Shown in pieces: positions 3,762 through 32,730 of a stretch of DNA of 61,498 nt. Position numbers and translations under genes: made by a program. Every line of letters starts with the position of its first letter. The stretch's first letter is position 1. The DNA comes from Candidatus Woesearchaeota archaeon (GTDB lineage Archaea; Nanobdellota; Nanobdellia; SCGC-AAA011-G17; GW2011-AR18). The notes beneath the pieces are model-generated. The model made no database searches. It worked only from the letters and a program-made list of their open reading frames with translations, and was not told the origin of the DNA. The DNA is taken from the NCBI GenBank assembly GCA_016179945.1, contig JACPCE010000004.1, positions 1 to 61,498 of the forward strand, read 5' to 3'.

Positions 3762-4697
3762 ATGAATAAAAAAGAGTATGATGTTATTATTATTGGTTCT
3801 GGACCTGGTGGTATAACTGCTTCTATTTATACTGTTAGAGCAAATCTAAAAACTTTAGTGATAGGTGGAAGTACTCCTGGTGGCCAATTAATGATAACTA
3901 CAGATGTAGATGACTTTCCTGGATTTCCTGGCGGAATTCAAGGCCCTGAATTAATGCAAAGAATGAGAAAGCAGGCAGAATTATTGGGTGTAGAATTTTT
4001 GGATGAGAATGTTACTAAAACTGATTTTAAAAAAAGACCTTTAAAATTATTTGCAGAAGAAAAAGAATTTTCTGCTCATGCAGTTATAGTTGCAACTGGA
4101 GCAAGCGCTAAATGGTTAGGAATACCTTCAGAGAAAAATTTAATTGGTAAAGGTGTTAGTGCATGCGCAACGTGTGATGGATTTTTTTTCAAAAATAAAA
4201 ATGTATTGGTAATTGGTGGCGGGGACACTGCAATGAGGGAAGCACTTTATTTAGCTAAAATATGCAAAACAGTTACTGTTATCCATAGAAGAGATAAATT
4301 AAAGGCACAAGCTGCTTTGGAACAAAAAGCAAAAAATACAAAAAATATAAGCTGGGTTTGGAATTCAGTTGTTGAGGAATTTTTAGGAACAAATAAATTA
4401 GAAGGTGTAAAATTAAAGAACATTGTTACTAATAAAATTAGTGAATTAAAGTGTGAAGGTGTGTTTGTTGCTATAGGTCATAAACCAAATACTGGATTTT
4501 TAAAAGGAAATATTGAATTAGATGATCACAATTATATTGTAGTTAATGATCAGGTTAAAACAAATGTTGAAGGTGTATTTGCAGCTGGTGATGTTCATGA
4601 CTACAGATATATGCAAGCTGTCACTGCAGCTGGTGCAGGGTGTATGGCTGCTTTAGAAGCTAGTGATTATATAGAAGAACTAAAACATAAAAAATAA
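3762..4697 (+). CDS. trxB: Thioredoxin-disulfide reductase
   Basis: GSGPGG, CATCDG redox motif, GGGDTA, FAAGDV. Confidence 0.96.
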   Translation: MNKKEYDVIIIGSGPGGITASIYTVRANLKTLVIGGSTPGGQLMITTDVDDFPGFPGGIQGPELMQRMRKQAELLGVEFLDENVTKTDFKKRPLKLFAEEKEFSAHAVIVATGASAKWLGIPSEKNLIGKGVSACATCDGFFFKNKNVLVIGGGDTAMREALYLAKICKTVTVIHRRDKLKAQAALEQKAKNTKNISWVWNSVVEEFLGTNKLEGVKLKNIVTNKISELKCEGVFVAIGHKPNTGFLKGNIELDDHNYIVVNDQVKTNVEGVFAAGDVHDYRYMQAVTAAGAGCMAALEASDYIEELKHKK

Positions 4698-4698
4698 A

Positions 4699-4854
4699 AT
4701 GCCAAGACAAAACATAATAATATACAAGCAATCAAAAAAAGACATTAGAAAGCCAAAAGAAGTAAAGTTTCTTCACTGCCATAAAAATGTTAAATTCTTA
4801 AGTGCACATGTTAAGGCAAAACACATAGGTAAAAAACTAATTATTAAAAGATAA
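4699..4854 (+). CDS. Small basic protein, 51 aa (not in ORF track)
   Basis: ATG 1 nt after the trxB stop; MPRQNIIIYKQSKKDIRKPKEVKFLHCHKNVKFLSAHVKAKHIGKKLIIKR*. Confidence 0.5.
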   Translation: MPRQNIIIYKQSKKDIRKPKEVKFLHCHKNVKFLSAHVKAKHIGKKLIIKR

Positions 4855-4908
4855 TTATATTTACTTGTTAGTAGTAAAATATATAAACTTTATATTAATA
4901 TTATTTCT

Positions 4909-5592
4909 ATGATAACAAATCCAGATTTAAAAGAATTACACAGACTTTTAGCTAGATCTGAAGAATTTATTGAAATTAATGATGCTAAAAATGTTAAATT
5001 AAATATACCTGACTTAGGATTTTCTACATTATATTGCAGAAAAAGAGATCATTTAGTTGGCAGTGGAAAAAAGAGGTATTTGGTTGTTTTGATAGACAAA
5101 GAATTTCCTAATTTTAAAAGTGAAAAACATGTTGAATCATTTCTAAATTATGCTAGAGAATTAAATGAGAAGGGATATTATTTTGCTCCAGTATTAAAAA
5201 GCCCACCCTATTTAAGACATGATGGAAGAAGCAAATCAAGAGTTGAAATAGGTGATAAAAGATCAAGACATGTCAGAACTAAAGACATAGAAAGATTATT
5301 GATTAGAACTACAGAAAACAACTTGACTTATTATGTTCCTAATAGTGAAGAAAGCAAATTAATTTTAGTTTCTTTTGCATCTGTTCAATCTAGTTATGAT
5401 CATTTACCAGATGATCATGGAGCTAGAGTATTTGCTCCTGATGGAAGAACTTTGGAAAGAAGCATGCGTTATGATATAAAAACAAAATTTTATGACAGAA
5501 TTACTTTTGTTCCTGTTAAATCTAGAGGAAATTTAGCTATTGCTGCTAATAAAACAACAACTATTGAAGAAAGTCAACGTAGATTAATTTAG
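4909..5592 (+). CDS. Hypothetical protein
   Basis: 227-aa ORF with TATATAAA about 28 nt upstream. Confidence 0.65.
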   Translation: MITNPDLKELHRLLARSEEFIEINDAKNVKLNIPDLGFSTLYCRKRDHLVGSGKKRYLVVLIDKEFPNFKSEKHVESFLNYARELNEKGYYFAPVLKSPPYLRHDGRSKSRVEIGDKRSRHVRTKDIERLLIRTTENNLTYYVPNSEESKLILVSFASVQSSYDHLPDDHGARVFAPDGRTLERSMRYDIKTKFYDRITFVPVKSRGNLAIAANKTTTIEESQRRLI

Positions 5593-6134
5593 CAGTAATT
5601 TTGCTGGACAAAATAAGCAAGTTGTCTTTTACCTCTGTGAACCCTTGTTTTAACAGCACCAACACTGTCTATTTCTAATATTGTTTTTATTTCATCTATA
5701 TTATAACCAAGAAGTCTTAGTTCTAAAGCCCTACGATTTGTTCCATTTACTTCACTTAAACCATTTTCTAACAGTTCTTGTCTTTCTCTATCCTGTAAAT
5801 AGAATAATTGTGCTGGTTTTACTTTATCATATACTGCGCCTGGCAGATACCCTGTCCTTCCTCTAACATGTCTTCTCTCCTTTTTTAATTTCATTAATGC
5901 AGTATTTTTTGTTACTCTGTATATCCAAGTTTTAAATCTTGATTCTCCTTTAAAATTTCTTAGATTTTTATGTACTGCAAGAAAAACTTCGCTTGTTACA
6001 TCTTCTGCAAGTGTTGGATCTTTTACACAACCAACTGCAATACTATAAACATATCTATAATTATCTTTGTATAAATCTACAAAACTAGAATATTCTAAAC
6101 TTGGATGAATTCTTCTTCCTAATTGTTCTTTCAT
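5589..6134 (-). CDS. Sigma-70 family, ECF-type sigma factor homologue
   Basis: Region 2 AEDVTSEVFL...FKGESRFKTWIYRVTKNTALMKLKK; region 4 GYNIDEI...GAVKTRVHRGKRQL. Confidence 0.88.
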   Translation of the reverse strand: MKEQLGRRIHPSLEYSSFVDLYKDNYRYVYSIAVGCVKDPTLAEDVTSEVFLAVHKNLRNFKGESRFKTWIYRVTKNTALMKLKKERRHVRGRTGYLPGAVYDKVKPAQLFYLQDRERQELLENGLSEVNGTNRRALELRLLGYNIDEIKTILEIDSVGAVKTRVHRGKRQLAYFVQQNYC

Positions 6135-6173
6135 AGTTAATTAATTGAATGATAAATTTTATAAAATTAATCT

Positions 6174-6836
6174 TTATCTGTGTTTTTTGATATTTATTTT
6201 ATGGCAATATTTTTTTACTGGGCATTTTGAGCAGAATGGACTAATTGGAACACAAATATTTTGTCCAAAAACCACAAACAAATCATTAATATCATGATAA
6301 TATTCTTTTGGTATTATTCTAAGCAATTGTTTTTCTGTTTCATCTGGTTTTTTAGTTTTTATCCATCCCAACCTATTTGGTATTCTATGAACGTGTGTAT
6401 CAACAGCAATATGATTTTTGCTGTGGAATCCATAAGTCATGACTATATTCATTGTTTTTCTGCCAACACCTTTTAATTTTAATAATTCTTCTTCATTATC
6501 AGGAACTTTTCCACTGTAATTTTTTATTAGAACTTTGCAAATTTCTTTTATTCTTCTGGCTTTAGTCTTATAAAAACCAACTGGATAAATTAATTTTTCA
6601 ATTTGTTTTGTATTAAGTCTTAGAATTTTTTCTGGAGTATCAGCTACCTTGAATAATTGGCGAGATGCGATAGCAGTAACTGCATCTTTTGTTCTCAAGC
6701 TTAATAAACAAGAAATTAGAACTTTAAAAGGATTTTTTGTTATATCTCCTATTTCTGTTACTATTGCATTATTATACTTTTCACATTCTTTTTTTATTAG
6801 ATTAATCACTGCTTCTATATTATTAGATTTCAGCAT
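6174..6836 (-). CDS. nth: Endonuclease III
   Basis: HhH motif LKGVGRKT, AVDTHVHRI, C-terminal CxxxxxxCxxCxxxxxC Fe-S motif. Confidence 0.95.
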   Translation of the reverse strand: MLKSNNIEAVINLIKKECEKYNNAIVTEIGDITKNPFKVLISCLLSLRTKDAVTAIASRQLFKVADTPEKILRLNTKQIEKLIYPVGFYKTKARRIKEICKVLIKNYSGKVPDNEEELLKLKGVGRKTMNIVMTYGFHSKNHIAVDTHVHRIPNRLGWIKTKKPDETEKQLLRIIPKEYYHDINDLFVVFGQNICVPISPFCSKCPVKKYCHKINIKKHR

Positions 6837-6867: not shown

Positions 6868-7503
6868 ATGTCTGTATGCCTCATAACCTATGCTACATTT
6901 ATGAATCCCAGGTTATTTTCAGGATTGATTGGTCGTCTTGGTCATTCTACTAATATTTCTTATGATTTAGTATATGTCGCAGAACATCAGAGATTTTTTG
7001 GCTTTCCTGAAATAAGTGGTAAAATAATTTGTGATGTTTTTGATGATTCTGGTAAGGTAAAAATTCATGGACTTGGTGCTATGACTATTAGAGAATCTAG
7101 AAAAAATTGGTATAATGCAGTTTTGTATAAATATTTAGATGATGGACTTTTTGGAGAGTTAGATAGAATAGAAGGATCATCTTACTTAGTTAGAAAAAGA
7201 ATAGAAAAAGAACATATATTTAATTTTAGAGATAAATCTCCTTGGAACGAAACTACAGATGATATATATGTATATGAAGCATTAAAAGATATTCCATTAG
7301 AAGGTCGTAATTTACAATATGTTAGAAGAGGCATTGCTCCAAATAAAGATTATTTAGAAAAATGTAGAAATGGCCTTAGGCTTCATAGTTGTGCTTTTAG
7401 ACAAGAATTTGAGAGAACTACTTTTTTAATAGGGAAAGGTAATAACTCTAATGCTTTCTCTTTGGAAGATAGTGTGTTTTCAATAAATAATAGAATGTTT
7501 TAA
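6868..7503 (+). CDS. Divergent gamma-glutamylcyclotransferase-like protein
   Basis: LITYATFMNP, NAVLY, ELDRIEG, PNKDYL resemble GGCT/ChaC motifs. Confidence 0.5.
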   Translation: MSVCLITYATFMNPRLFSGLIGRLGHSTNISYDLVYVAEHQRFFGFPEISGKIICDVFDDSGKVKIHGLGAMTIRESRKNWYNAVLYKYLDDGLFGELDRIEGSSYLVRKRIEKEHIFNFRDKSPWNETTDDIYVYEALKDIPLEGRNLQYVRRGIAPNKDYLEKCRNGLRLHSCAFRQEFERTTFLIGKGNNSNAFSLEDSVFSINNRMF

Positions 7504-7530: not shown

Positions 7531-7653
7531 GGGGATGTAGTATAACTTGGTTCAGTATAGGGGCCTCCAGTAATGGAAATATGAGCTGTAAAGCGATGAT
7601 ATTATTTTTTGAGAAGAAAGCCTCGGATCAGGGTTCAAATCCCTGCATCCCCA
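7531..7653 (+). tRNA. trnW: tRNA-Trp(CCA) with a 48-nt intron at 37/38 (7571-7618)
   Basis: Acceptor GGGGATG/CATCCCC-A; anticodon stem GGGGC/GCCTC, loop CT-CCA-G^A; T arm CAGGG-TTCAAAT-CCCTG; relaxed BHB (CTCC/GAAG, AAA bulge). Confidence 0.92.
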
Positions 7654-7705
7654 CTTAATAATAAAAAATTTAAACATGCGAATTTCTCTTTGATAATTTT
7701 TAAAA

Positions 7706-8752
7706 ATGAGATTAGAAAATCTAGTTAGGGGTATTGTGAGTTCATTTATATTAGCTATGCCATCAGCATGCACTCCAAGCAAAGGCTCTATTCAGGATAT
7801 TAAGGAACATCAAGTTGAAAGAAAACAAAAGGGCTTTAATTTTGTTTCGTGGAAATCTGAAGAATATGAAAATTTATACTCAGATAATTCCTTGGAAGAA
7901 ATAAAGTTCCTTGGTAGTAATTTTGTTGCTTTAACTCCTATTCATTTTCAGGATGGAATTAATTCAACATTAATTTATTCACTTCATGGAACTACTTCAA
8001 CTTACTCTGCTTTAAGACATGCTATTGAAAAAGCGCATAGACTTGGAATAAAAGTTATGTTAAAGCCGCATATAGAATTAAAAGATGGAAACTGGCGTGC
8101 TATGATAAATTTTTCAAGTGATTATGAATATAGAATGTGGTTTTATAATTATCAAAGGTTAATAGTAGAATATGCAAAATTTGCGCAAGATAATAGTGTT
8201 GAACAAATTTGTATTGGAACTGAACTTGATGGCTTAACTTCTAGAGATGGAGACTGGCGTAGATTAATAAAAGAGATAAGAAATGTATTCAAAAGTAACA
8301 TAACTTATGCTGCAACATATAGCAATGCAAGATTTGTAAATTGGTGGAATGATTTAGATTTTATAGGTATAAATGCTTATTTTGAATTAACAAATAAACA
8401 AGACCCAAGCCCTTTAGATTTGTACAATTCATGGGTTGTATATTTAGATGATATTAAATTACTCTCAGATAAATATAAAAAAGATATTATATTTACAGAA
8501 GTTGGCTATAGAAGCTTGAATGGCACAAACAAAGCACCATGGGATTTTCTTTCTCAAGGAACAACAGATCTTGATGAACAGAAGGATGCATATGGTTCAA
8601 TATTTTGGTCTTTTTGGGATAAATCTTGGTTTAGTGGTGTTTATTTCTGGGCATGGGAAGCAAATCCAAAAAACACCCATGTGCTTGATAATGGATATAG
8701 TCCTAAAGGAAAACCAGCTGAAATCCATTTAATGGATTGGTTTAATAGATAA
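7706..8752 (+). CDS. Secreted/lipoprotein glycoside hydrolase, GH113-like TIM barrel
   Basis: Hydrophobic N-terminus with SAC; VMLKPHI, IGTEL, DFIGINAYF, FTEVGY, FWAW. Confidence 0.8.
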   Translation: MRLENLVRGIVSSFILAMPSACTPSKGSIQDIKEHQVERKQKGFNFVSWKSEEYENLYSDNSLEEIKFLGSNFVALTPIHFQDGINSTLIYSLHGTTSTYSALRHAIEKAHRLGIKVMLKPHIELKDGNWRAMINFSSDYEYRMWFYNYQRLIVEYAKFAQDNSVEQICIGTELDGLTSRDGDWRRLIKEIRNVFKSNITYAATYSNARFVNWWNDLDFIGINAYFELTNKQDPSPLDLYNSWVVYLDDIKLLSDKYKKDIIFTEVGYRSLNGTNKAPWDFLSQGTTDLDEQKDAYGSIFWSFWDKSWFSGVYFWAWEANPKNTHVLDNGYSPKGKPAEIHLMDWFNR

Positions 8753-8950
8753 ATTAGTAAGTGAACTAAATAATTGCTAAAGTAAAATATAAACAGATGT
8801 TGACAATTTATAGCTTGTATTAGTGTAAGATTTAAAAAAATTTACTCAATTCTATTAAAAACTTAATTCGCTAGCTAAATAGAAATGTTGTTACTTCAAA
8901 ATAGATACATACAGAAAACTTTATATAATAGTTCACATATCTTGAGACTT

Positions 8951-10762
8951 ATGAAATATTCAAAATTTTTAGTTGTGGTTTTAGCGATATTATTGTTATT
9001 TTCTTTTACTGTATCAGCAGCACAAGTTTCAATTACTCCGGGAAATCCAAATGACAATGATAATTTAACATGTAATATAGACGGAGTAGCACCTAATGAT
9101 TTAGCTAGATATAGTTTTCAATGGCATGTTAATGGTGCGCAAGATAAAACAATAGGAAATACTTGGGTTTATCCTTTTTCAAAAACAAAGACAAATGATT
9201 TTATAACTTGTGTTGTATTCGCACCTGGTGGATTTTTTGTAGGACTAGATAGTAAAACAATAGCAGCTATTCAGCAGCCAAAACAAAACAACCCACCAAG
9301 CGTAAATATTATTTCTCCAGCTAGCGGATCTAATTTCTTTAAAGGAAATAATATTAATTTTAATGCTTTAGCTAGTGATCTTGACAATGATCCTTTATTT
9401 TTTACGTGGGATTTTGGAGATGGTTTTATTTCACAAGGCATACTGAATCCTAATCATATTTATAATTTAGCTGGAAATTATTTAGTTAAATTAACTGTTA
9501 GTGATGGTAAGGTTGATGTTTCTGATAGCATAATTTTAAACATTGTAGATCCAATGGGCGGTCAAAAGAAAAATCCTTCTGCTGTTATTGATGCACAAGC
9601 AAATGCAAAGGTTGGTGATTTTGTATTATTTAGAGGAGATAGAAGTTTTGATCCTGATGGAAACATTGTAAATTATGAGTGGGATTTTGGAGATGGAATC
9701 AAAGCAAATGGACCTGTAGTTCAACATCAATATAATTTAGCTGGAAATTATGCTGTAAGTTTGACTGTTACTGATAATGATGGTTTGAAAAATGCAGTTG
9801 TGGTGTTTGTAAATGTTGTAAATCAAAATGTTTTAAATCAGGTACCTGTTGCTGTTATTGAATTAAGCGCTGCAAATTTAATTGCTGGTGAGCCTTTTGA
9901 TGCTAAAGGAATAAAAAGTTTTGATCCTGATGGAAACATTGTAAATTATGAGTGGGATTTTGGAGATGGGAGAACACACAATGGTGTAAATGCAAGATTA
10001 ATTTATCCAAATCCAGGAAATTATAAAATAACATTGACGGTTACTGATGACAAAGGTGCAAAAGGAACAACAAGCACAAATGTTGTAGTAAATCAAAATG
10101 TTTTAAATCAGGCACCTGTTGCTGTTATTGATGCAAGCAGTATTGAAGCGTTCTTAGGTTTTCCAATTAGATTAAGTGGTTCTAGAAGTTTTGATCCTGA
10201 TGGAAACATTGTAAATTACGAATGGAATTTTGATGATGGAACTATTGCTGACGGTGAATTTATTGAACACACATTTTTTAATCCTGGAATTTACAATGTT
10301 GTATTGACTGTTACTGATGACAAAGGTGCTACTGGCAGCAAAGTCTTATCTATAAATGCTGGCAATGTAAATAGAGGGCCTGATTTTGACAAGCTTAGAG
10401 TAGATCATAAGAAAAATAATGATTTAGATGATAACTATAGAGATACTAGAATAGCAAGATTAATGCCTTTAAATTTTAAGAATTTTTACAATAAAGGTGA
10501 AAACTTTGCACTTTTAGCTAAACTAGTAAATGAAGGAACAGCTAATGATGTTGTTGATGTAAAAGTAAGTGTTCCTGAATTTAATTATGTGCGTGTTGTG
10601 AAAAATGTTCATATTGAAGCAAATGAAGTAAAATGGGTAATGCTTAATGTTGAAATCCCGGTTTCTGCAGCTTCTGGTGTGTATGTTGTAAAGGTTGAAT
10701 TATTAGCAAATAAAGGGTTTATTGAAAATAATAAAGCGTTTTGGGATTTTGTAGTTGCTTAA
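8951..10762 (+). CDS. Secreted surface protein with four PKD domains
   Basis: Signal peptide MKYSKFLVVVL...VSA (start reassigned from 8885; TATA at 8920); repeated SFDPDG..YEWDFGDG...Y..LTVTDD. Confidence 0.9.
   Translation: MKYSKFLVVVLAILLLFSFTVSAAQVSITPGNPNDNDNLTCNIDGVAPNDLARYSFQWHVNGAQDKTIGNTWVYPFSKTKTNDFITCVVFAPGGFFVGLDSKTIAAIQQPKQNNPPSVNIISPASGSNFFKGNNINFNALASDLDNDPLFFTWDFGDGFISQGILNPNHIYNLAGNYLVKLTVSDGKVDVSDSIILNIVDPMGGQKKNPSAVIDAQANAKVGDFVLFRGDRSFDPDGNIVNYEWDFGDGIKANGPVVQHQYNLAGNYAVSLTVTDNDGLKNAVVVFVNVVNQNVLNQVPVAVIELSAANLIAGEPFDAKGIKSFDPDGNIVNYEWDFGDGRTHNGVNARLIYPNPGNYKITLTVTDDKGAKGTTSTNVVVNQNVLNQAPVAVIDASSIEAFLGFPIRLSGSRSFDPDGNIVNYEWNFDDGTIADGEFIEHTFFNPGIYNVVLTVTDDKGATGSKVLSINAGNVNRGPDFDKLRVDHKKNNDLDDNYRDTRIARLMPLNFKNFYNKGENFALLAKLVNEGTANDVVDVKVSVPEFNYVRVVKNVHIEANEVKWVMLNVEIPVSAASGVYVVKVELLANKGFIENNKAFWDFVVA
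9643..10239 (+). repeat. Near-identical 54-bp internal repeats in the PKD modules (9643-9696, 9916-9969, 10186-10239)
   Basis: Copies 1 and 2 identical, copy 3 near-identical; ~270-bp period. A second block GTAAATCAAAATGTTTTAAATCAGG occurs at 9818 and 10088. Confidence 0.9.
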
Positions 10763-10851
10763 ATTTCGTTACTACCAAAAGATTTATAAATAAGTAGCAA
10801 CTACACAATGACAACACTTTTGAGTAGTGTTTTTGAAGGAGGAAAATTAAG

Positions 10852-12189
10852 ATGAAAAATTTCAGATTATTTGCATTGGTTATGTTGACTTTAGTTTTAT
10901 TTACAACTAGTGCAGTTACAAGTGTGTTTGCAATAAGCAGTGGATTTGTAAATTTCAATGATCCATTTGTTACAATAAACAGAATTGAAGTTAATGATCA
11001 AGTTGCTGATGAATTCTCACCAATTTATTTAGAAAGAGAGCAAGATGTTATAGTTGAAGTTTATTTTACAGGGAATCCATATGGAAAATGCAGATCAGGA
11101 AATAATAATAAATGCTATGATGTAAAGGTTGATGCTGAAATAAACGGCTATGAATACGGTGATATAAGGGATGTAGAAGGTCCTTTTGAAGTTGAACCTG
11201 GAGTTCAGTATAGAAAGGTTTTGAGATTTAAATTACCAGAAGACATGCCTGCAAGCGATGATTTAACTCTTAATGTTGATATTAAAGATGATGATGATTT
11301 AGTTATTATAAGATATCCTGTTAGAATACAGGAAATAAGACATAGATTGAATATTTTTGATGCAATATTTAATCCTACAAACAATGTACAGGCAGGACAG
11401 CCTTTGTTTGCTAATATAAGACTAGAAAACTTAGGAGATAATACTGAAAGCAGTGTTAAGGTTACTGTTGCTATTCCTGCTTTAGGATTACAAACTAGCG
11501 AATATGTTGACAGATTATCAACATTAGAATCTGATGATAGAGATGATGATGAAGATGTAAATGATGCTGCAACATCAAATGATTTAATGCTAATGATACC
11601 TCAAACTGTAAATGAGGGAGATTACAATGTACTTGTAACATTAGAATATAATAGAGGAAGAACATTAGAACAGAAAACTTACAAGATGCATATAAAAGGT
11701 GCACAACCTGTTATTCAAATTAAAGATTTGAAAGCTACTACAACAGTAAGTGTAGATTCACAAGCACAAGTTGTAGAGAAAGGAAATGGCGCAGTTTTCA
11801 AGTTTAGTGTAGGAAATCTTGGCCAGCAAGCAACATCTTATACATTTGAATTAGTTGGTGTATCTGACTGGGCAAACACAAGAGTTGAACCTCTTAATTT
11901 AGTAGTTCAACCTAACAGTGTATCTGATGCATATGTTTATGTTGCTCCTAAAGAAAATGTTAAGGGAATAAAAACATTTACTGTAAAAGTAATGTCTGGA
12001 ACTAGCTTAGTAGCAGAAAAGAACTTAAGCCTAGAAGTTAAAGAGGCTAAGGGAGCAGACTTAAAAACAGTATTTACTTGGATATTCATTGTATTGCTAG
12101 TTATATTGGCAATATTAGTAGTGGTTGTCTTGGCTAAGAAACTTGCTTCAAAAGAAGAGAAAGGAATTGAAGGACAAACTTACTACTAA
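10852..12189 (+). CDS. Secreted Ig-like (CARDB/NEW3-like) surface protein with C-terminal TM anchor
   Basis: Signal peptide, beta-rich modules (LENLGD, VGNLG), C-terminal TM plus basic tail ending QTYY; GGAGG SD upstream. Confidence 0.75.
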   Translation: MKNFRLFALVMLTLVLFTTSAVTSVFAISSGFVNFNDPFVTINRIEVNDQVADEFSPIYLEREQDVIVEVYFTGNPYGKCRSGNNNKCYDVKVDAEINGYEYGDIRDVEGPFEVEPGVQYRKVLRFKLPEDMPASDDLTLNVDIKDDDDLVIIRYPVRIQEIRHRLNIFDAIFNPTNNVQAGQPLFANIRLENLGDNTESSVKVTVAIPALGLQTSEYVDRLSTLESDDRDDDEDVNDAATSNDLMLMIPQTVNEGDYNVLVTLEYNRGRTLEQKTYKMHIKGAQPVIQIKDLKATTTVSVDSQAQVVEKGNGAVFKFSVGNLGQQATSYTFELVGVSDWANTRVEPLNLVVQPNSVSDAYVYVAPKENVKGIKTFTVKVMSGTSLVAEKNLSLEVKEAKGADLKTVFTWIFIVLLVILAILVVVVLAKKLASKEEKGIEGQTYY

Positions 12190-12198
12190 AATTAGTAG

Positions 12199-14223
12199 GT
12201 GAATTTAATGCAAAAAGAAAGGTTTTTTTTAGTTTTATTTATTAGTCTTCTTTTAATAATTTCTATAGTTAATGCTGTTGAAATTAATCCTTTAAGCTTA
12301 AGCGGAAGTTTATGTCCTAGAGAAACTGGATTATTTACGCATGTTGTCAAAAACAATAACAATGTTGTAAAAGATTATAGTTTGAACATTAAAGGAAGTG
12401 CTTCTGCATGGGCAACTGTTGTTCCAAGCGGATTTATTTTAGGGCCTGGAGAACAAAAGAATATTTTTACTTATATTACCCCATCACAATCAACAGAACC
12501 TGGAAATTATGACTTACAGATTGAGGCAAGCTCTCCAGGTGACAGCAAAAGTATATCTCATACTGTAACTGTCAAAAATTGTTATAGTGCAAATTTAGGT
12601 GTTAGTTCAAATTCTAAATCATCTTGTCCAAGCGATGCTATACAATATACAGTTAATTTGAAAAACAATGGTGAATATGCTGAAACATTTAGTTTAAGTG
12701 TTACTGGCAATTTAGCTTCAAGAACAAGTTTAAGTGATAACCTTGTAATTCTTGGCAAGGGAGAAACTAAAAATATTATAGTATTTGTCAACTCTCCTGC
12801 TGATTCAGGAAGCTACAGCCTTACATTAATAGCTGAATCTGAAAGCGGAAGAGTAAGAGAATCTGTGCCTTTATTATTGAATGTCAATCCTTGTTATGAT
12901 TTTAATTTAGCAATCAATGGAAATAATACTTACAATGTGTGCGATAGGAGCTATGTTGTTATTCCTTTAAATTTAAAAAATATTGGAACTACTGTTAATA
13001 GCTATAAAATTAATGTTGACGGACCTGTATGGGCAAAGGTAGAAAAAACAGATATTGTTTTAAAAGACAAGGAAGCTAAAACTTTTAATTTAATGTTTGC
13101 TCCAGATTATGGATCAGCAGGAGAATATGGTATTAGATTAACTGTGACTCCAGAAAGGGGAAGCATGAAATCTATAAGTGATTTTAGTGTAACTGTTAGA
13201 AAATGTCATTCTGTTGATGTTGAATTTTTAACTAAAAAATCTGATTCATGTAAGGGAACAATTGAAAGTTATGATGCTGTGATTAATAACAATGGTGAAG
13301 TAAGAAAGAGCTATAGAATAGAACTTGACGGCCCTCCATGGGCAAGTATTGATGATAAATATAAATTATTAATATTAGGCCCTAAGGAACAGAAGAAAGT
13401 AACTATAAGGGCAGCTCCGACAAGCGCTGTTAAGGAACAAAATTATGCTGTGAAACTAAAAGCAGTGGCAACTGATGAAAGCAGTGCTTCTGCTAAAGAT
13501 GTTGATGAATTAATATTAAATTTGAAAGATGCAAATGAATGCTATAAACCTGCAATAGAATCAAAATATATGGATGTAGTAGTTTATTATGATTCAAGTG
13601 TTGCATTTCCTATAGAAGTAAGAAATGATGGTGTTAGAAGGGCTGACTTTAGTTTATTTTTAAGCGGAAATGCTGCAAAATTTTCTACATTAAATCCTAG
13701 TGCAATTAGTTTAGATCCTGGAAAGAGCGATATTGTTTATTTGTATATTGCTCCTGATATAAATGTTAAGCTTGGAAGTTATGATGCAAATATTGCTTTG
13801 AATATAAAGGACGGTCCTTTACTAACAAATAAGAAATTTAACATTGAAATAACTAATGTAAAGGAAAGAGCTACAAATTTACAGTCAAATACTGAAGTTG
13901 TTAAAACACCTGTTACAAATGAAGTTTCATACTGGCAAAGATTAAAATCTTGGTTTGGCAGGAATTTTATTGGAAGTGAAGAAGAAAGAATATCTTTTTC
14001 AAATGTTACACCAATAATAAATGTTACAAATACAAATACTCCAAAATTTATTAAATATAAATATTATATTTTAGGAGTTCTTATAACTATACTTGTAATA
14101 ATACTTTTAATAATTATATTCTCTGGAAGAAAAGAAAGTATAAATAAGAAAAACAAAAAGAAATCTAAAAAAACTGATTACGAAGCCGAAGACATAAAAG
14201 GAAAAGTAGAAGAAGATAATTAA
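12199..14223 (+). CDS. Large Ig-like repeat surface/S-layer-associated protein with C-terminal TM
   Basis: Signal peptide; five ~100-aa modules with NxG motifs and linker Cys pairs; C-terminal TM plus Lys-rich tail. Confidence 0.75.
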   Translation: MNLMQKERFFLVLFISLLLIISIVNAVEINPLSLSGSLCPRETGLFTHVVKNNNNVVKDYSLNIKGSASAWATVVPSGFILGPGEQKNIFTYITPSQSTEPGNYDLQIEASSPGDSKSISHTVTVKNCYSANLGVSSNSKSSCPSDAIQYTVNLKNNGEYAETFSLSVTGNLASRTSLSDNLVILGKGETKNIIVFVNSPADSGSYSLTLIAESESGRVRESVPLLLNVNPCYDFNLAINGNNTYNVCDRSYVVIPLNLKNIGTTVNSYKINVDGPVWAKVEKTDIVLKDKEAKTFNLMFAPDYGSAGEYGIRLTVTPERGSMKSISDFSVTVRKCHSVDVEFLTKKSDSCKGTIESYDAVINNNGEVRKSYRIELDGPPWASIDDKYKLLILGPKEQKKVTIRAAPTSAVKEQNYAVKLKAVATDESSASAKDVDELILNLKDANECYKPAIESKYMDVVVYYDSSVAFPIEVRNDGVRRADFSLFLSGNAAKFSTLNPSAISLDPGKSDIVYLYIAPDINVKLGSYDANIALNIKDGPLLTNKKFNIEITNVKERATNLQSNTEVVKTPVTNEVSYWQRLKSWFGRNFIGSEEERISFSNVTPIINVTNTNTPKFIKYKYYILGVLITILVIILLIIIFSGRKESINKKNKKKSKKTDYEAEDIKGKVEEDN

Positions 14224-19129: not shown

Positions 19130-19690
19130 TTATTTTTCTTTACCTTTCTTGCTTTTCTTTAAATCTTCTTCAATCCATTTGATATTTCCCAAAGCAGGCT
19201 GTCTCATTGTAAGACCTACTTTTGGATTTGTCAAATCTTTATAACTTACTGCAATGACTCTTGCCCGGCATTTATCACCTACTTTAAGAGATTTTTTGCT
19301 CTCTTTTCCTGTCAAAACTTTTGATTTGCTAAAACTTATAAAATCATCCATTGTTTGTGAGACGTGAATCATTCCATCTACAGTTCCGATATTTATGAAA
19401 GCACCAAAGTTTGTTATATCTGTTATTTTTCCAAGACAAACTTCTTGTAATTCTGGTAAAAATGTTAGCATTTTAAATTCTGTCTCATAATATGGTGCTC
19501 CATCTCCAGGTATAATTATTCCTTCGCCTATATTTAGGATTTCTGTGACATATATAACGAATCCAACATTATTGCTTATGTGACCTTCAAAAGTCTCATT
19601 AAGTCTTTGTAAAATTGCTTCTTTTGTGTTTTGCTTTAGCAATACGGGTGGAACCCTAACATGACTTTTAGCTTTTATCTCGTAGAACAT
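19130..19690 (-). CDS. rpo7: RNA polymerase subunit Rpo7 (RpoE')
   Basis: IIPGDGAPYY, FGAFINIG..DGMIHVSQ, GLTMRQP.LG. Confidence 0.96.
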   Translation of the reverse strand: MFYEIKAKSHVRVPPVLLKQNTKEAILQRLNETFEGHISNNVGFVIYVTEILNIGEGIIIPGDGAPYYETEFKMLTFLPELQEVCLGKITDITNFGAFINIGTVDGMIHVSQTMDDFISFSKSKVLTGKESKKSLKVGDKCRARVIAVSYKDLTNPKVGLTMRQPALGNIKWIEEDLKKSKKGKEK

Positions 19691-27303: not shown

Positions 27304-28219
27304 TTTTTTATCAATATTAACAACAACCTTTAAATATGAATTCTATTTCCATCTAACTAGTTCATGCATGAAGAAGAGTTATTAGTACTTTTCTAATGTA
27401 ATTATGTGTACTTAATAATTTACATTTTAAGTACGAGAGAGCAAAACCAATAGAACGTAGTGATCTCTATATAAAATTGCGACAATATAAATCCCATTGA
27501 TCCTGTGGGAGATTGCTGCTATTGGGATCCGACTAAGCCATGCAAGTCATAGGGGTAGCAATACCACTGGCATAAGGCTCAGTAACACGTCGATAATTTG
27601 CCCTTAGGTCTGGGAAAACCTCGGGAAACTGAGGCTAAACCTAGATAAGAAAAAGATACTGGAATGTTTTTTTTCTAAAAGGCAACGCCTAAGGATAAGT
27701 CGGCGGCTGATTAGGTTGTTGGTGAGGTAATGGCTCACCAAGCCTAGGATCAGTAGGGGGGATGAGAGTCCTAGCCCCGAGAAGGGCACTGAGATACTGG
27801 CCCTAGCCCTAAGGGGTGCAGCAGGCGCGAAAACTCTGCAATGCACGAAAGTGTGACAGGGGGATCCCAAGTGCTTTGTCTTCGGATAAAGCTTTTATTA
27901 AGTCTAAATAGCTTGGTGAATAAGTGGTGGGTAAGACGGGTGCCAGCCGCCGCGGTAACACCCGCGCCACTAGTGGCAATCACTTTTATTGGGTCTAAAG
28001 CGTCCGTAGCCGGTTTAATAAGTCTCTTGTGAAATTGTTGGGCTTAACCTAACAACGTGCAAGAGAAACTATTAGACTTGAGACTGGGAGGAGGTAGAAG
28101 TATTCTAAGGGTAGCGGTAAAATGTTATAATCCTTGGAGGACTACCAGTGGCGGAGGCGTCTACCTAGAACAGGTCTGACGGTGAGGGACGAAGGCTAGG
28201 GGAGCAAAACGGATTAGAT

Positions 28220-28330
28220 ACAAGAAATTTTCTGAGAGTAAATTTCTGTACAGGCAAGTAAAATTGATCAATAAAAAACTACTTTATTTGTTAAGATGCA
28301 GAAATTAATATGGAAATTTGCTTGCTAAGT
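28220..28330 (+). other. 16S rRNA BHB intron 1 (111 nt, ~E. coli 793/794)
   Basis: Central helix TTAG/CTAA, bulges AT^A and GT^A, inner helix CAAG/CTTG; splicing restores GGATTAGATACCCGAGTAGTCC. Confidence 0.9.
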
Positions 28331-28614
28331 ACCCGAGTAGTCCTAGCAGTAAACTCTGTGAGCTATGTGTTGCACAATCTTAGTGATTGTGCAGTGCCTA
28401 AGCGAAGGTGTTAAGCTCACCACCTGGGAAGTACAGTCGCAAGACCGAAACTTAAAGGAATTGGCGGGGGCTCACTACAAGGGGTGAAGAGTGCGGTTCA
28501 ATTGGATTCCACGCCGGAAATCTCACCAGGGGCGACGGCAATATGAAGGTCAGATTAAAGGTTTTACCTAATGCGCCGAGAGGTGGTGCATGGCCGACGC
28601 CAGCTCGTGCCGTG

Positions 28615-28672
28615 AAATTCCGTTGTAATATTCCAATGAATCGATCAATATAGTTACAACTTGATTCGGTAA
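28615..28672 (+). other. 16S rRNA BHB intron 2 (58 nt, ~E. coli 1079/1080)
   Basis: Central helix GCCG/CGGT, bulges TG^A and AA^A, inner AATT/GATT and GTTGTAA/TTACAAC; splicing restores GCCGTGAGGTGTC. Confidence 0.9.
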
Positions 28673-29220
28673 AGGTGTCACGTTAAGTCGTGCAACGAGC
28701 AAGACCCATATCCGCTTTTACCAGCAGGTACTATGGTACGACTGGGTACAATGCGGAGACTGCCTCCGTAAGGAGGAGGAAGGCGTGGGCAACGTTAGGT
28801 CCGTATGCCCCGAATCTCCTGGGCTACACGCGCTCTGCAATGGTGGAGACAATGGGATGCAACTCCGAAAGGAGAAGCAAATCCTCGAAATTCCATCTTA
28901 GTCTGGATTGAGGGTTGTAATTCACCCTCATGAAACCGGAATCCCTAGTAATCGGGCTTCATTACGGCCCGGTGAATAACGTCCCTGAGCCTTGCACACA
29001 CTGCCCGTCAAACCAACCGAGCATGGCTTAGATGAGATATAGTTTTTTGATTATATCGAATCTGAGTTAAGTAAGGTGGGTTAAGTCGTCACAAGGTATC
29101 CGTAGGGGAACCTGCGGATGGATCACCTCCTTTTTATGATCTTAAACTACTTCTATTGGTGCTCATATTTTATATTCAAATGGGCTCGTAGCTCAGCCCG
29201 GTAGAGCATCTCCCTTGCAT

Positions 29221-32634
<3,414 letters not shown>

Positions 32635-32730
32635 GAATATACAAGAATCTGTGCACCGATTAATTTTTTTCTTTTAATTTTTATATTTTAGAATTTTATT
32701 AGTGAGAACTATAACGAAAGCTTGTTTGAA

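Follow-up and report, generated by a model that had tools for sequence, protein, structure and literature searches.

An archaeon of the small-genome DPANN type carries an intact gene for a bacterial-type sigma factor in its chromosome, on contig JACPCE010000004.1 of the Candidatus Woesearchaeota assembly GCA_016179945.1. The stretch of DNA analyzed here (the window) is this whole contig of 61,498 bases, and the genome to which it belongs (G000) consists of 782 kb in 27 contigs. The gene is located on the reverse strand at positions 5589 to 6134 and encodes a 181-amino-acid protein of the extracytoplasmic function (ECF, group 4) type of the sigma-70 family. A comparison with related genomes indicates that the gene is accessory within its genus and evolves much faster than its neighbors, whereas a comparison of polymerase residues makes a holoenzyme of the bacterial kind with the archaeal RNA polymerase unlikely. 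Tentatively, and with slightly less than an even chance of being right, we favor the reading that the protein is expressed from its own archaeal promoter and regulates transcription in a sequence-specific manner, as an accessory factor that diverges rapidly and does not dock to the core enzyme in the canonical way.

The open reading frame (ORF) begins with ATG and comprises 181 codons without internal stops. It is matched by the full-length NCBIfam model for ECF sigma factors (TIGR02937) with 65.1 bits against a cut-off of 42.9, whereby model positions 3-161 of 165, including region 4, are covered. Region 2 (the sigma2 domain, residues 21-88, positions 5871 to 6074 on the reverse strand) is recognized by Pfam Sigma70_r2 (PF04542) with 60.1 bits against a cut-off of 24 and contains both D45-x3-E49 and F67-K-T-W70. 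An earlier reading of the letters without database searches (the sequence-only reading) had described a complete ECF-type sigma factor with exactly this DxxxE...FKTW surface in an intact region 2, and both descriptions hold. It had also named a helix-turn-helix in region 4 (the sigma4 domain, residues 126-172, positions 5619 to 5759 on the same strand). The respective Pfam family (Sigma70_r4_2, PF08281) matches residues 126-172 with 21.6 bits, slightly below its cut-off of 25.7, but the coverage by TIGR02937 and the structural superposition given below bear the domain out. The 181-residue protein has no Pfam match to Sigma70_r1_2 or Sigma70_r3; it is composed of regions 2 and 4 only, which are joined by a short linker as in the ECF group.

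The fold agrees with this assignment. An AlphaFold2 model built from an input of 90 sequences reached a mean predicted local distance difference test score (pLDDT) of 91 and shows two helical domains, with low confidence only at the linker (residues ~94-106) and with the sigma4 helices at residues 131-141, 146-153, and 158-180. The top Foldseek matches of the model are solved ECF sigma factors, with a probability of 1.00 throughout. When the domains of the model were superposed separately, sigma2 fitted region 2 of Escherichia coli sigmaE (4lup_A) to 0.8 Å over 74 columns and sigma4 fitted 3hug_E to 1.3 Å over 68 columns. The closest solved proteins by sequence are Bacillus subtilis SigW (3e-11), Pseudomonas aeruginosa AlgU, Mycobacterium tuberculosis SigH and SigE, and E. 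coli sigmaE. In a comparison with 213 reference ECF sigma factors, the consensus residue was present at 32 of the 44 columns that are conserved to at least 60%. Among the consensus residues kept are D45, E49, W70, R73, N77, R134, R164, and R167, of which D45, E49, R73, N77, R134, R164, and R167 are charged surface positions. The glutamine of region 2.2, found in 95% of the references, is replaced by serine (S48).

Compared with the solved bacterial ECF sigma factors (B. subtilis SigW, 5wuq; P. aeruginosa AlgU, 6in7 and 8z6g; E. coli sigmaE, 1or7, 4lup, and 6jbq; and the M. tuberculosis SigH, SigE, and SigL holoenzymes), the protein shares the order sigma2-linker-sigma4 and the family motifs, with E values from 3e-11 to 4e-8 and a fold probability of 1.00, at an identity of 20-28% in near full-length fold-search alignments. 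It differs from them in that it reaches no NCBIfam equivalog, has no adjacent anti-sigma factor, and carries a serine in place of the region 2.2 glutamine, and in that the polymerase of its host is archaeal, with a clamp lacking three β' residues needed for the holoenzyme. The best-scoring NCBIfam equivalog model is SigW (NF007223), with 69.6 bits against a cut-off of 209, and all 25 listed subfamily and equivalog models for named ECF factors (SigW, SigM, SigX, RpoE, and others) remained far below their cut-offs. G000 encodes a single sigma gene of the ECF type.

The surroundings of the gene are archaeal. The same contig carries an archaeal small-subunit rRNA gene (27490-29131) and a large-subunit rRNA gene (29540-32640), 21 kb from the sigma gene, as well as Rpo7 (19130-19690), two TrmB regulators, ELP3, SMC, gyrase, and ribosomal proteins. 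With a GC content of 30.6% and a third-position GC content (GC3) of 12.6%, the sigma gene falls inside the range of variation of the 54 ORFs of the window (28.4 ± 3.2% and 16.0 ± 2.9%, respectively), and the archaeal neighborhood of matching composition that the sequence-only reading had reported is thus found. G000 is estimated to be 73.8% complete with 0.41% contamination. Furthermore, the stretch is present in four groundwater metagenome runs of one study (X1-X4), where per-run contigs match it with 0 differences and no variants were seen inside the sigma gene. The junction between the sigma gene and the convergent gene on its downstream side is joined by run contigs in X2 (4195-5912), X3 (4476-6085), and X4 (5367-5961), and in X1, which may be the source sample, one contig (3700-6794) spans the sigma gene together with both of its junctions. 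The junction with the upstream neighbor nth (6134-6174) is bridged in X1 alone among the contig pieces listed.

Two congeners (G001 and G002) allow the history of the locus to be followed. In G002 the gene order is the same: nth, a sigma gene on the same strand, and a convergent gene overlapping the sigma stop by 4 nt. G001, which is estimated to be 100% complete, keeps nth, the convergent gene, and trxB, and has 63 bp at the place of the sigma gene; neither a protein search nor a search with the Sigma70_r2 family found a sigma gene elsewhere in this genome. The genes nth and SMC lie together on one contig in all three congeners. Between G000 and G002 the sigma proteins are only 37% identical, whereas the congeners share 74-77% identity in nth, 79-81% in gyrA, and 78-79% in SMC. 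Because the gene is absent from G001 and its product is down to 37% identity against 74-81% for the neighbors and housekeeping proteins, it is accessory within the genus and evolves much faster than its surroundings. G000 is approximately equidistant from both congeners, so that a gain and a loss of the sigma gene are not separable.

The sigma protein is also isolated among its wider relatives. In a set of 1.84 billion representative sequences, 30,991 match it at E ≤ 1e-3, and a single one (P0002, 60% identity) does so at E ≤ 1e-30; this is also the sole representative with more than 50% identity. The next relatives are P0003 (36%), which is nearly the G002 protein, and P0004 (42%). Serine is found at the region 2.2 position of P0002 as well, and glutamine in the G002 protein and P0004. 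All of the best 80 loci in named genomes belong to bacteria (Chloroflexota, Paenibacillaceae, Bacteroidota, Acidobacteriota, and others), although this listing may omit records very near the window's own genome. A close donor lineage was looked for and not found among these 80 loci, none of which exceeds 34% identity across 130 or more residues.

Bacterial-type sigma genes in these archaea have already been published and are widespread, and the present gene is a further, rather isolated example. Castelle et al. (2021, Front Microbiol; PMC8204110) described sigma-70 genes (fam00359) as "particularly prevalent in Woesearchaeota". In their paper, mis-binning is excluded by means of the co-encoded proteins, anti-sigma factors are stated not to have been found, and the mechanism of the DPANN sigma-70 proteins is called unclear. 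Like the published genes, the window gene is of the bacterial type, lies on a contig verified as archaeal in an archaeon with a small genome, has no anti-sigma factor nearby, and occurs alongside archaeal TBP and TFB. It differs in its type, as it encodes a short two-domain ECF protein, whereas many sigma proteins of the order have ~290 residues. The present work adds the syntenic presence and absence within a genus, the contrast in rates, the placement of a TATA box, and the comparison of clamp residues.

Our own counts, which include three genomes flagged as unpublished (G510, G439, and G565), are in line with a wide distribution. Within the order of the window genome, TIGR02937 scored over its cut-off in 128 of 240 genomes, and within the phylum Sigma70_r2 did so in 162 of 401 genomes, and 145 of the 280 genera had at least one match to it at E ≤ 0.001; the same family was matched in 0/4 archaeal and 10/10 bacterial control genomes. 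Two kinds of sigma protein occur in the order, namely ECF-like ones of 155-230 residues and ones of ~290 residues with regions 1.2, 2, 3, and 4, some of the latter type carrying N-terminal extensions to a total of 630-650 residues. ORFs with such long N-terminal extensions (448-648 residues) were seen, for example, at L012, L031, and L034, and genes of the ~290-residue kind also stand in tandem arrays of two or three, for example at L021 (G114:C36:86-3736) and L023 (G208:C10). The 37 ECF-like sigma proteins of the order resemble the window protein in domain type and in the kind of host, at 15-22% identity to it.

The relationships among these proteins were analyzed in a maximum-likelihood tree of 112 rows (the 37 ECF-like proteins of the order, 72 bacterial ones, P0002, P0004, and the query), from which 12 ORFs shorter than 140 or longer than 260 residues and five fetched loci without a profile-passing ORF were left out. 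The query, P0002, the G002 protein, and P0004 form a clade with an SH-aLRT support of 96, while deeper nodes are not resolved and the remaining archaeal ECF-like rows are scattered over the free tree (10 changes). A constrained tree with a single clade for all 40 archaeal-side rows was not rejected; it was 78 log-likelihood units better, with a p-AU of 0.959 under LG+G4, a model more prone than site-heterogeneous ones to artifacts of long branches and composition. A single origin of the archaeal ECF-like sigma factors does not follow from the constrained tree, given the long branches and odd composition of the archaeal rows and the choice of the bacterial rows from the best matches of the query.

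A TATA-like box, TTTATA, lies in the 39 nt that separate the nth stop from the sigma start codon, at 6160 to 6165 on the reverse strand, and starts 31 nt before the ATG. In the window as a whole, TTTAWA starts between -38 and -24 in 18 of 53 ORFs, against ~5% expected from its window-wide rate. If the matches are sorted into 5-nt bins, six fall in the -35 bin and 11 in the -30 bin, and every other bin has 0-5. The G002 orthologue of the sigma gene has TTTATA at -29. The spacer upstream of the window gene thus seems to fit an archaeal TATA box from which a transcript with a short leader, or with none, would start.

The polymerase that such a sigma factor would meet is of the archaeal type. The sequence-only reading had set the gene against the background of archaeal initiation with TBP and TFB, and G000 itself encodes both. 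A second, weaker TFIIB-type match (32.9 bits) was seen at G000:C26:6492-6752, with an in-frame TAG and an open frame of 90 residues, which may be a broken TFB paralogue. A bacterial alpha-CTD was not found in G000, and rpo1 and rpo2 are not in this 73.8% complete assembly. G002, which carries the sigma orthologue, has one Rpb1_1 match, of the archaeal type, and such a match was present in 38 of 41 genomes of the order, nearly always as a single copy. E. coli β' (NC_000913.3) was aligned with 24 archaeal Rpo1N sequences, including those of G002 and G001. The clamp coiled-coil aligns free of gaps, and 13 of 50 residues, including the A-P-x-I-I tip, are identical between β' 260-309 and the G002 Rpo1N. 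The substitutions R275Q, E295K, and A302D in β' lead to deficient holoenzyme formation according to PMC8321222. At the three corresponding positions, each of the 24 archaeal Rpo1N sequences has I, L, and H. G002, with the sigma gene, and G001, without it, do not differ at these residues, and no adaptation of the clamp to the sigma protein is seen. Moreover, the β flap-tip helix, the docking site of sigma4, is commonly absent in archaea, again according to PMC8321222. Because of the residues at these three clamp positions and the common absence of the flap-tip helix, the formation of a bacterial-style holoenzyme between the sigma protein and the archaeal polymerase appears unlikely.

The sequence-only reading had offered two functions, namely repurposing as a DNA-binding regulator or action on the polymerase of a bacterial host or prey. 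The former appears to be the more plausible of the two. In the reading that we favor, the archaeal transcription machinery would make the sigma protein, and this accessory, fast-evolving protein would then regulate transcription sequence-specifically inside the archaeon. DNA would mainly be contacted by the helix-turn-helix of sigma4, perhaps with the help of sigma2. No holoenzyme of the bacterial kind would be formed because the archaeal clamp lacks the necessary docking residues, and neither a bacterial polymerase nor an anti-sigma factor was found to be encoded.

Several points weigh against this regulator reading. Free bacterial sigma factors are generally poor binders of promoter DNA without the core enzyme, and a stand-alone regulator would therefore need to have changed its behavior. 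Many of the conserved columns are fold-core residues, which a constraint on the fold alone could preserve, and the near-invariant glutamine of region 2.2 is serine in both the window protein and P0002. The clamp comparison was made on the congeners and other members of the order, as rpo1 and rpo2 are missing from the G000 assembly. Finally, both the dispensability of the gene in G001 and the existence of a sole relative with more than 50% identity among the 1.84 billion representatives would fit a drifting passenger gene too.

That the gene is such a laterally acquired passenger, which is functionless now and has not begun to decay, is the alternative that survives best, unlikely as we hold it to be. 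It would account for the missing gene at the syntenic site of the complete G001 genome, for the 37% identity between congeners against 74-81% for housekeeping proteins, for the failure to find a partner anti-sigma factor or a bacterial polymerase, and for the substitution of the near-invariant glutamine. However, the ORF is intact in two far-diverged species, in which a neutral ORF would be expected to gain stops, and the 32 retained columns, the confident model (pLDDT 91), and the entirely host-like composition speak against this reading, as do the TATA-like boxes at similar distances in G000 and G002 (-31 and -29).

Somewhat less probable still is the idea that the sigma protein binds the archaeon's own RNA polymerase, with sigma2 placed on the clamp coiled-coil of Rpo1N (the TFE/Spt5 site), and so serves as an alternative or modulating initiation factor. 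The coiled-coil can be aligned up to its tip (13/50 identities), and the sigma2 residues conserved in the family are mostly retained. Furthermore, sigma-70 genes, including forms with regions 1.2-2-3-4, are kept and have multiplied across the order and the phylum, a pattern not easily accounted for unless the sigma architecture is of some use. The three clamp positions with I, L, and H in place of R275, E295, and A302 in 24/24 sequences argue against such a contact, as do the identical clamp residues of G002 and G001, which give no sign of co-adaptation, and the serine at region 2.2 of the window protein. The flap-tip helix, moreover, is commonly absent in archaea according to PMC8321222. A related proposal, by which the sigma-70 proteins of the phylum, the ECF type included, would dock on the archaeal polymerase through a non-bacterial interface and thereby redirect or gate TBP/TFB-dependent initiation, is regarded as improbable.

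The second function offered by the sequence-only reading, by which the protein would be exported and would target the RNA polymerase of bacteria serving as host or prey, has fared badly and is given very little credence. The protein looks like a normal ECF sigma factor, the closest named relatives (the best 80 loci) are all bacterial, and DPANN archaea are generally regarded as symbionts (PMC8204110). Yet the N-terminus, as judged by eye and without a predictor, has no hydrophobic signal or export tag, no secretion-related neighbors were seen, the box upstream of the gene is of the archaeal type, and the gene is dispensable within the genus. In addition, the known DPANN episymbionts have other archaea and not bacteria as partners, again according to PMC8204110. 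Least probable of all, and very unlikely, is the arrival of the gene on the contig by mis-assembly or mis-binning of bacterial DNA (the sequence-only reading had named a chimeric assembly as what would overturn it), because contigs of X2, X3, and X4 bridge the junction of the convergent gene and the sigma gene with 0 differences, G002 has an equal gene order, G001 shares the flanks trxB, convergent gene, and nth, nth and SMC are co-located in three congeners, GC3 is host-like, archaeal rRNA genes lie on the contig, and contamination is estimated at 0.41%. Nothing was found in favor of such an artifact, the sole gap being that, among the pieces listed, the junction with nth is bridged in X1 alone.

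Upstream of the sigma gene and on the same strand lies the gene for endonuclease III (nth, 6174 to 6836), which is matched by TIGR01083 with 186 bits, under the cut-off of 211.7, and by Pfam HhH-GPD with 86 bits; at the syntenic position its product shares 77% identity with that of G001 and 74% with that of G002. Downstream, on the forward strand, a convergent gene (4909 to 5592) encodes 227 amino acids, and its stop overlaps the sigma stop by 4 nt. Its protein has no match in Pfam, NCBIfam, PHROGs, or the fold search, and it matches the genes at the same place in the congeners weakly, over ~55-70 residues (E values of 4e-5 for G002 and 2e-4 for G001). The G002 and G001 copies share 40% identity with each other, so this neighbor also appears to be fast-evolving. 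It was considered as a hidden anti-sigma factor and rejected, as its counterpart is kept in G001, which lacks the sigma gene, and as it has no family or fold match. No anti-sigma domain was found in the flanking ORFs with Pfam, NCBIfam, or PHROGs, the downstream gene being convergent. A provirus or mobile-element context was not indicated either, since five neighboring ORFs gave no PHROGs match. A perfect 10-nt inverted repeat around the sigma gene (5581-5590 and 6164-6173) is probably due to chance, since 15 such pairs occur within 1.2 kb of this AT-rich DNA and G002 has no counterpart of the one in question.

Farther upstream, runs X1 and X3 have 80 extra letters at 6836/6837, between nth and the divergent gene at 6868, suggesting that strains vary in the 31-nt spacer between these two divergent genes. 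At a distance of 1.6 kb from the sigma gene, the stretch 7706-14223 encodes a GH113 glycoside hydrolase, followed by a protein of 625 residues that has four PKD domains and by two further large proteins bearing Ig-like domains, and looks like a surface- or carbohydrate-related cluster.

Some further features of the window and of the congeners were noted. At 7531-7653 the Rfam tRNA model matches across 123 nt with 45.7 bits, which suggests an intron, while ARAGORN called no tRNA anywhere in the window. At this place, contigs of other depths match just 7531-7571 and 7616-7657, which are presumed to be the exons, and each of the four runs has a contig omitting one base at 7553. The 16S match is 1642 nt long against a model of 1478 positions and the 23S match 3101 nt against 2987, so that the rRNA genes may contain insertions; their GC content is 43%, compared with ~28% elsewhere in the window. 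In G002 (G002:C24:1481-5467), gyrA lies in an open frame of 1336 residues, and its match to the window GyrA falls into two parts (residues 4-128 and 121-870) that are separated by ~1.3 kb, an arrangement resembling an insertion of the intein type.

What a bacterial sigma factor does where transcription starts with TBP and TFB has been asked since the publication of 2021, and the present gene adds no new phenomenon to this question. It is, however, a convenient test case, as the protein is short, intact, and confidently modeled, and as one congener has an orthologue and another is a natural knock-out at the same locus. The clamp comparison narrows the options: since a sigma2-clamp contact of the bacterial kind is unlikely, either a new interface or a polymerase-independent role in DNA binding must be assumed. 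If docking through a non-bacterial interface proved true, these archaea would have a hybrid bacterial and archaeal initiation system, of which the 181-residue sigma protein would be the smallest tractable member.

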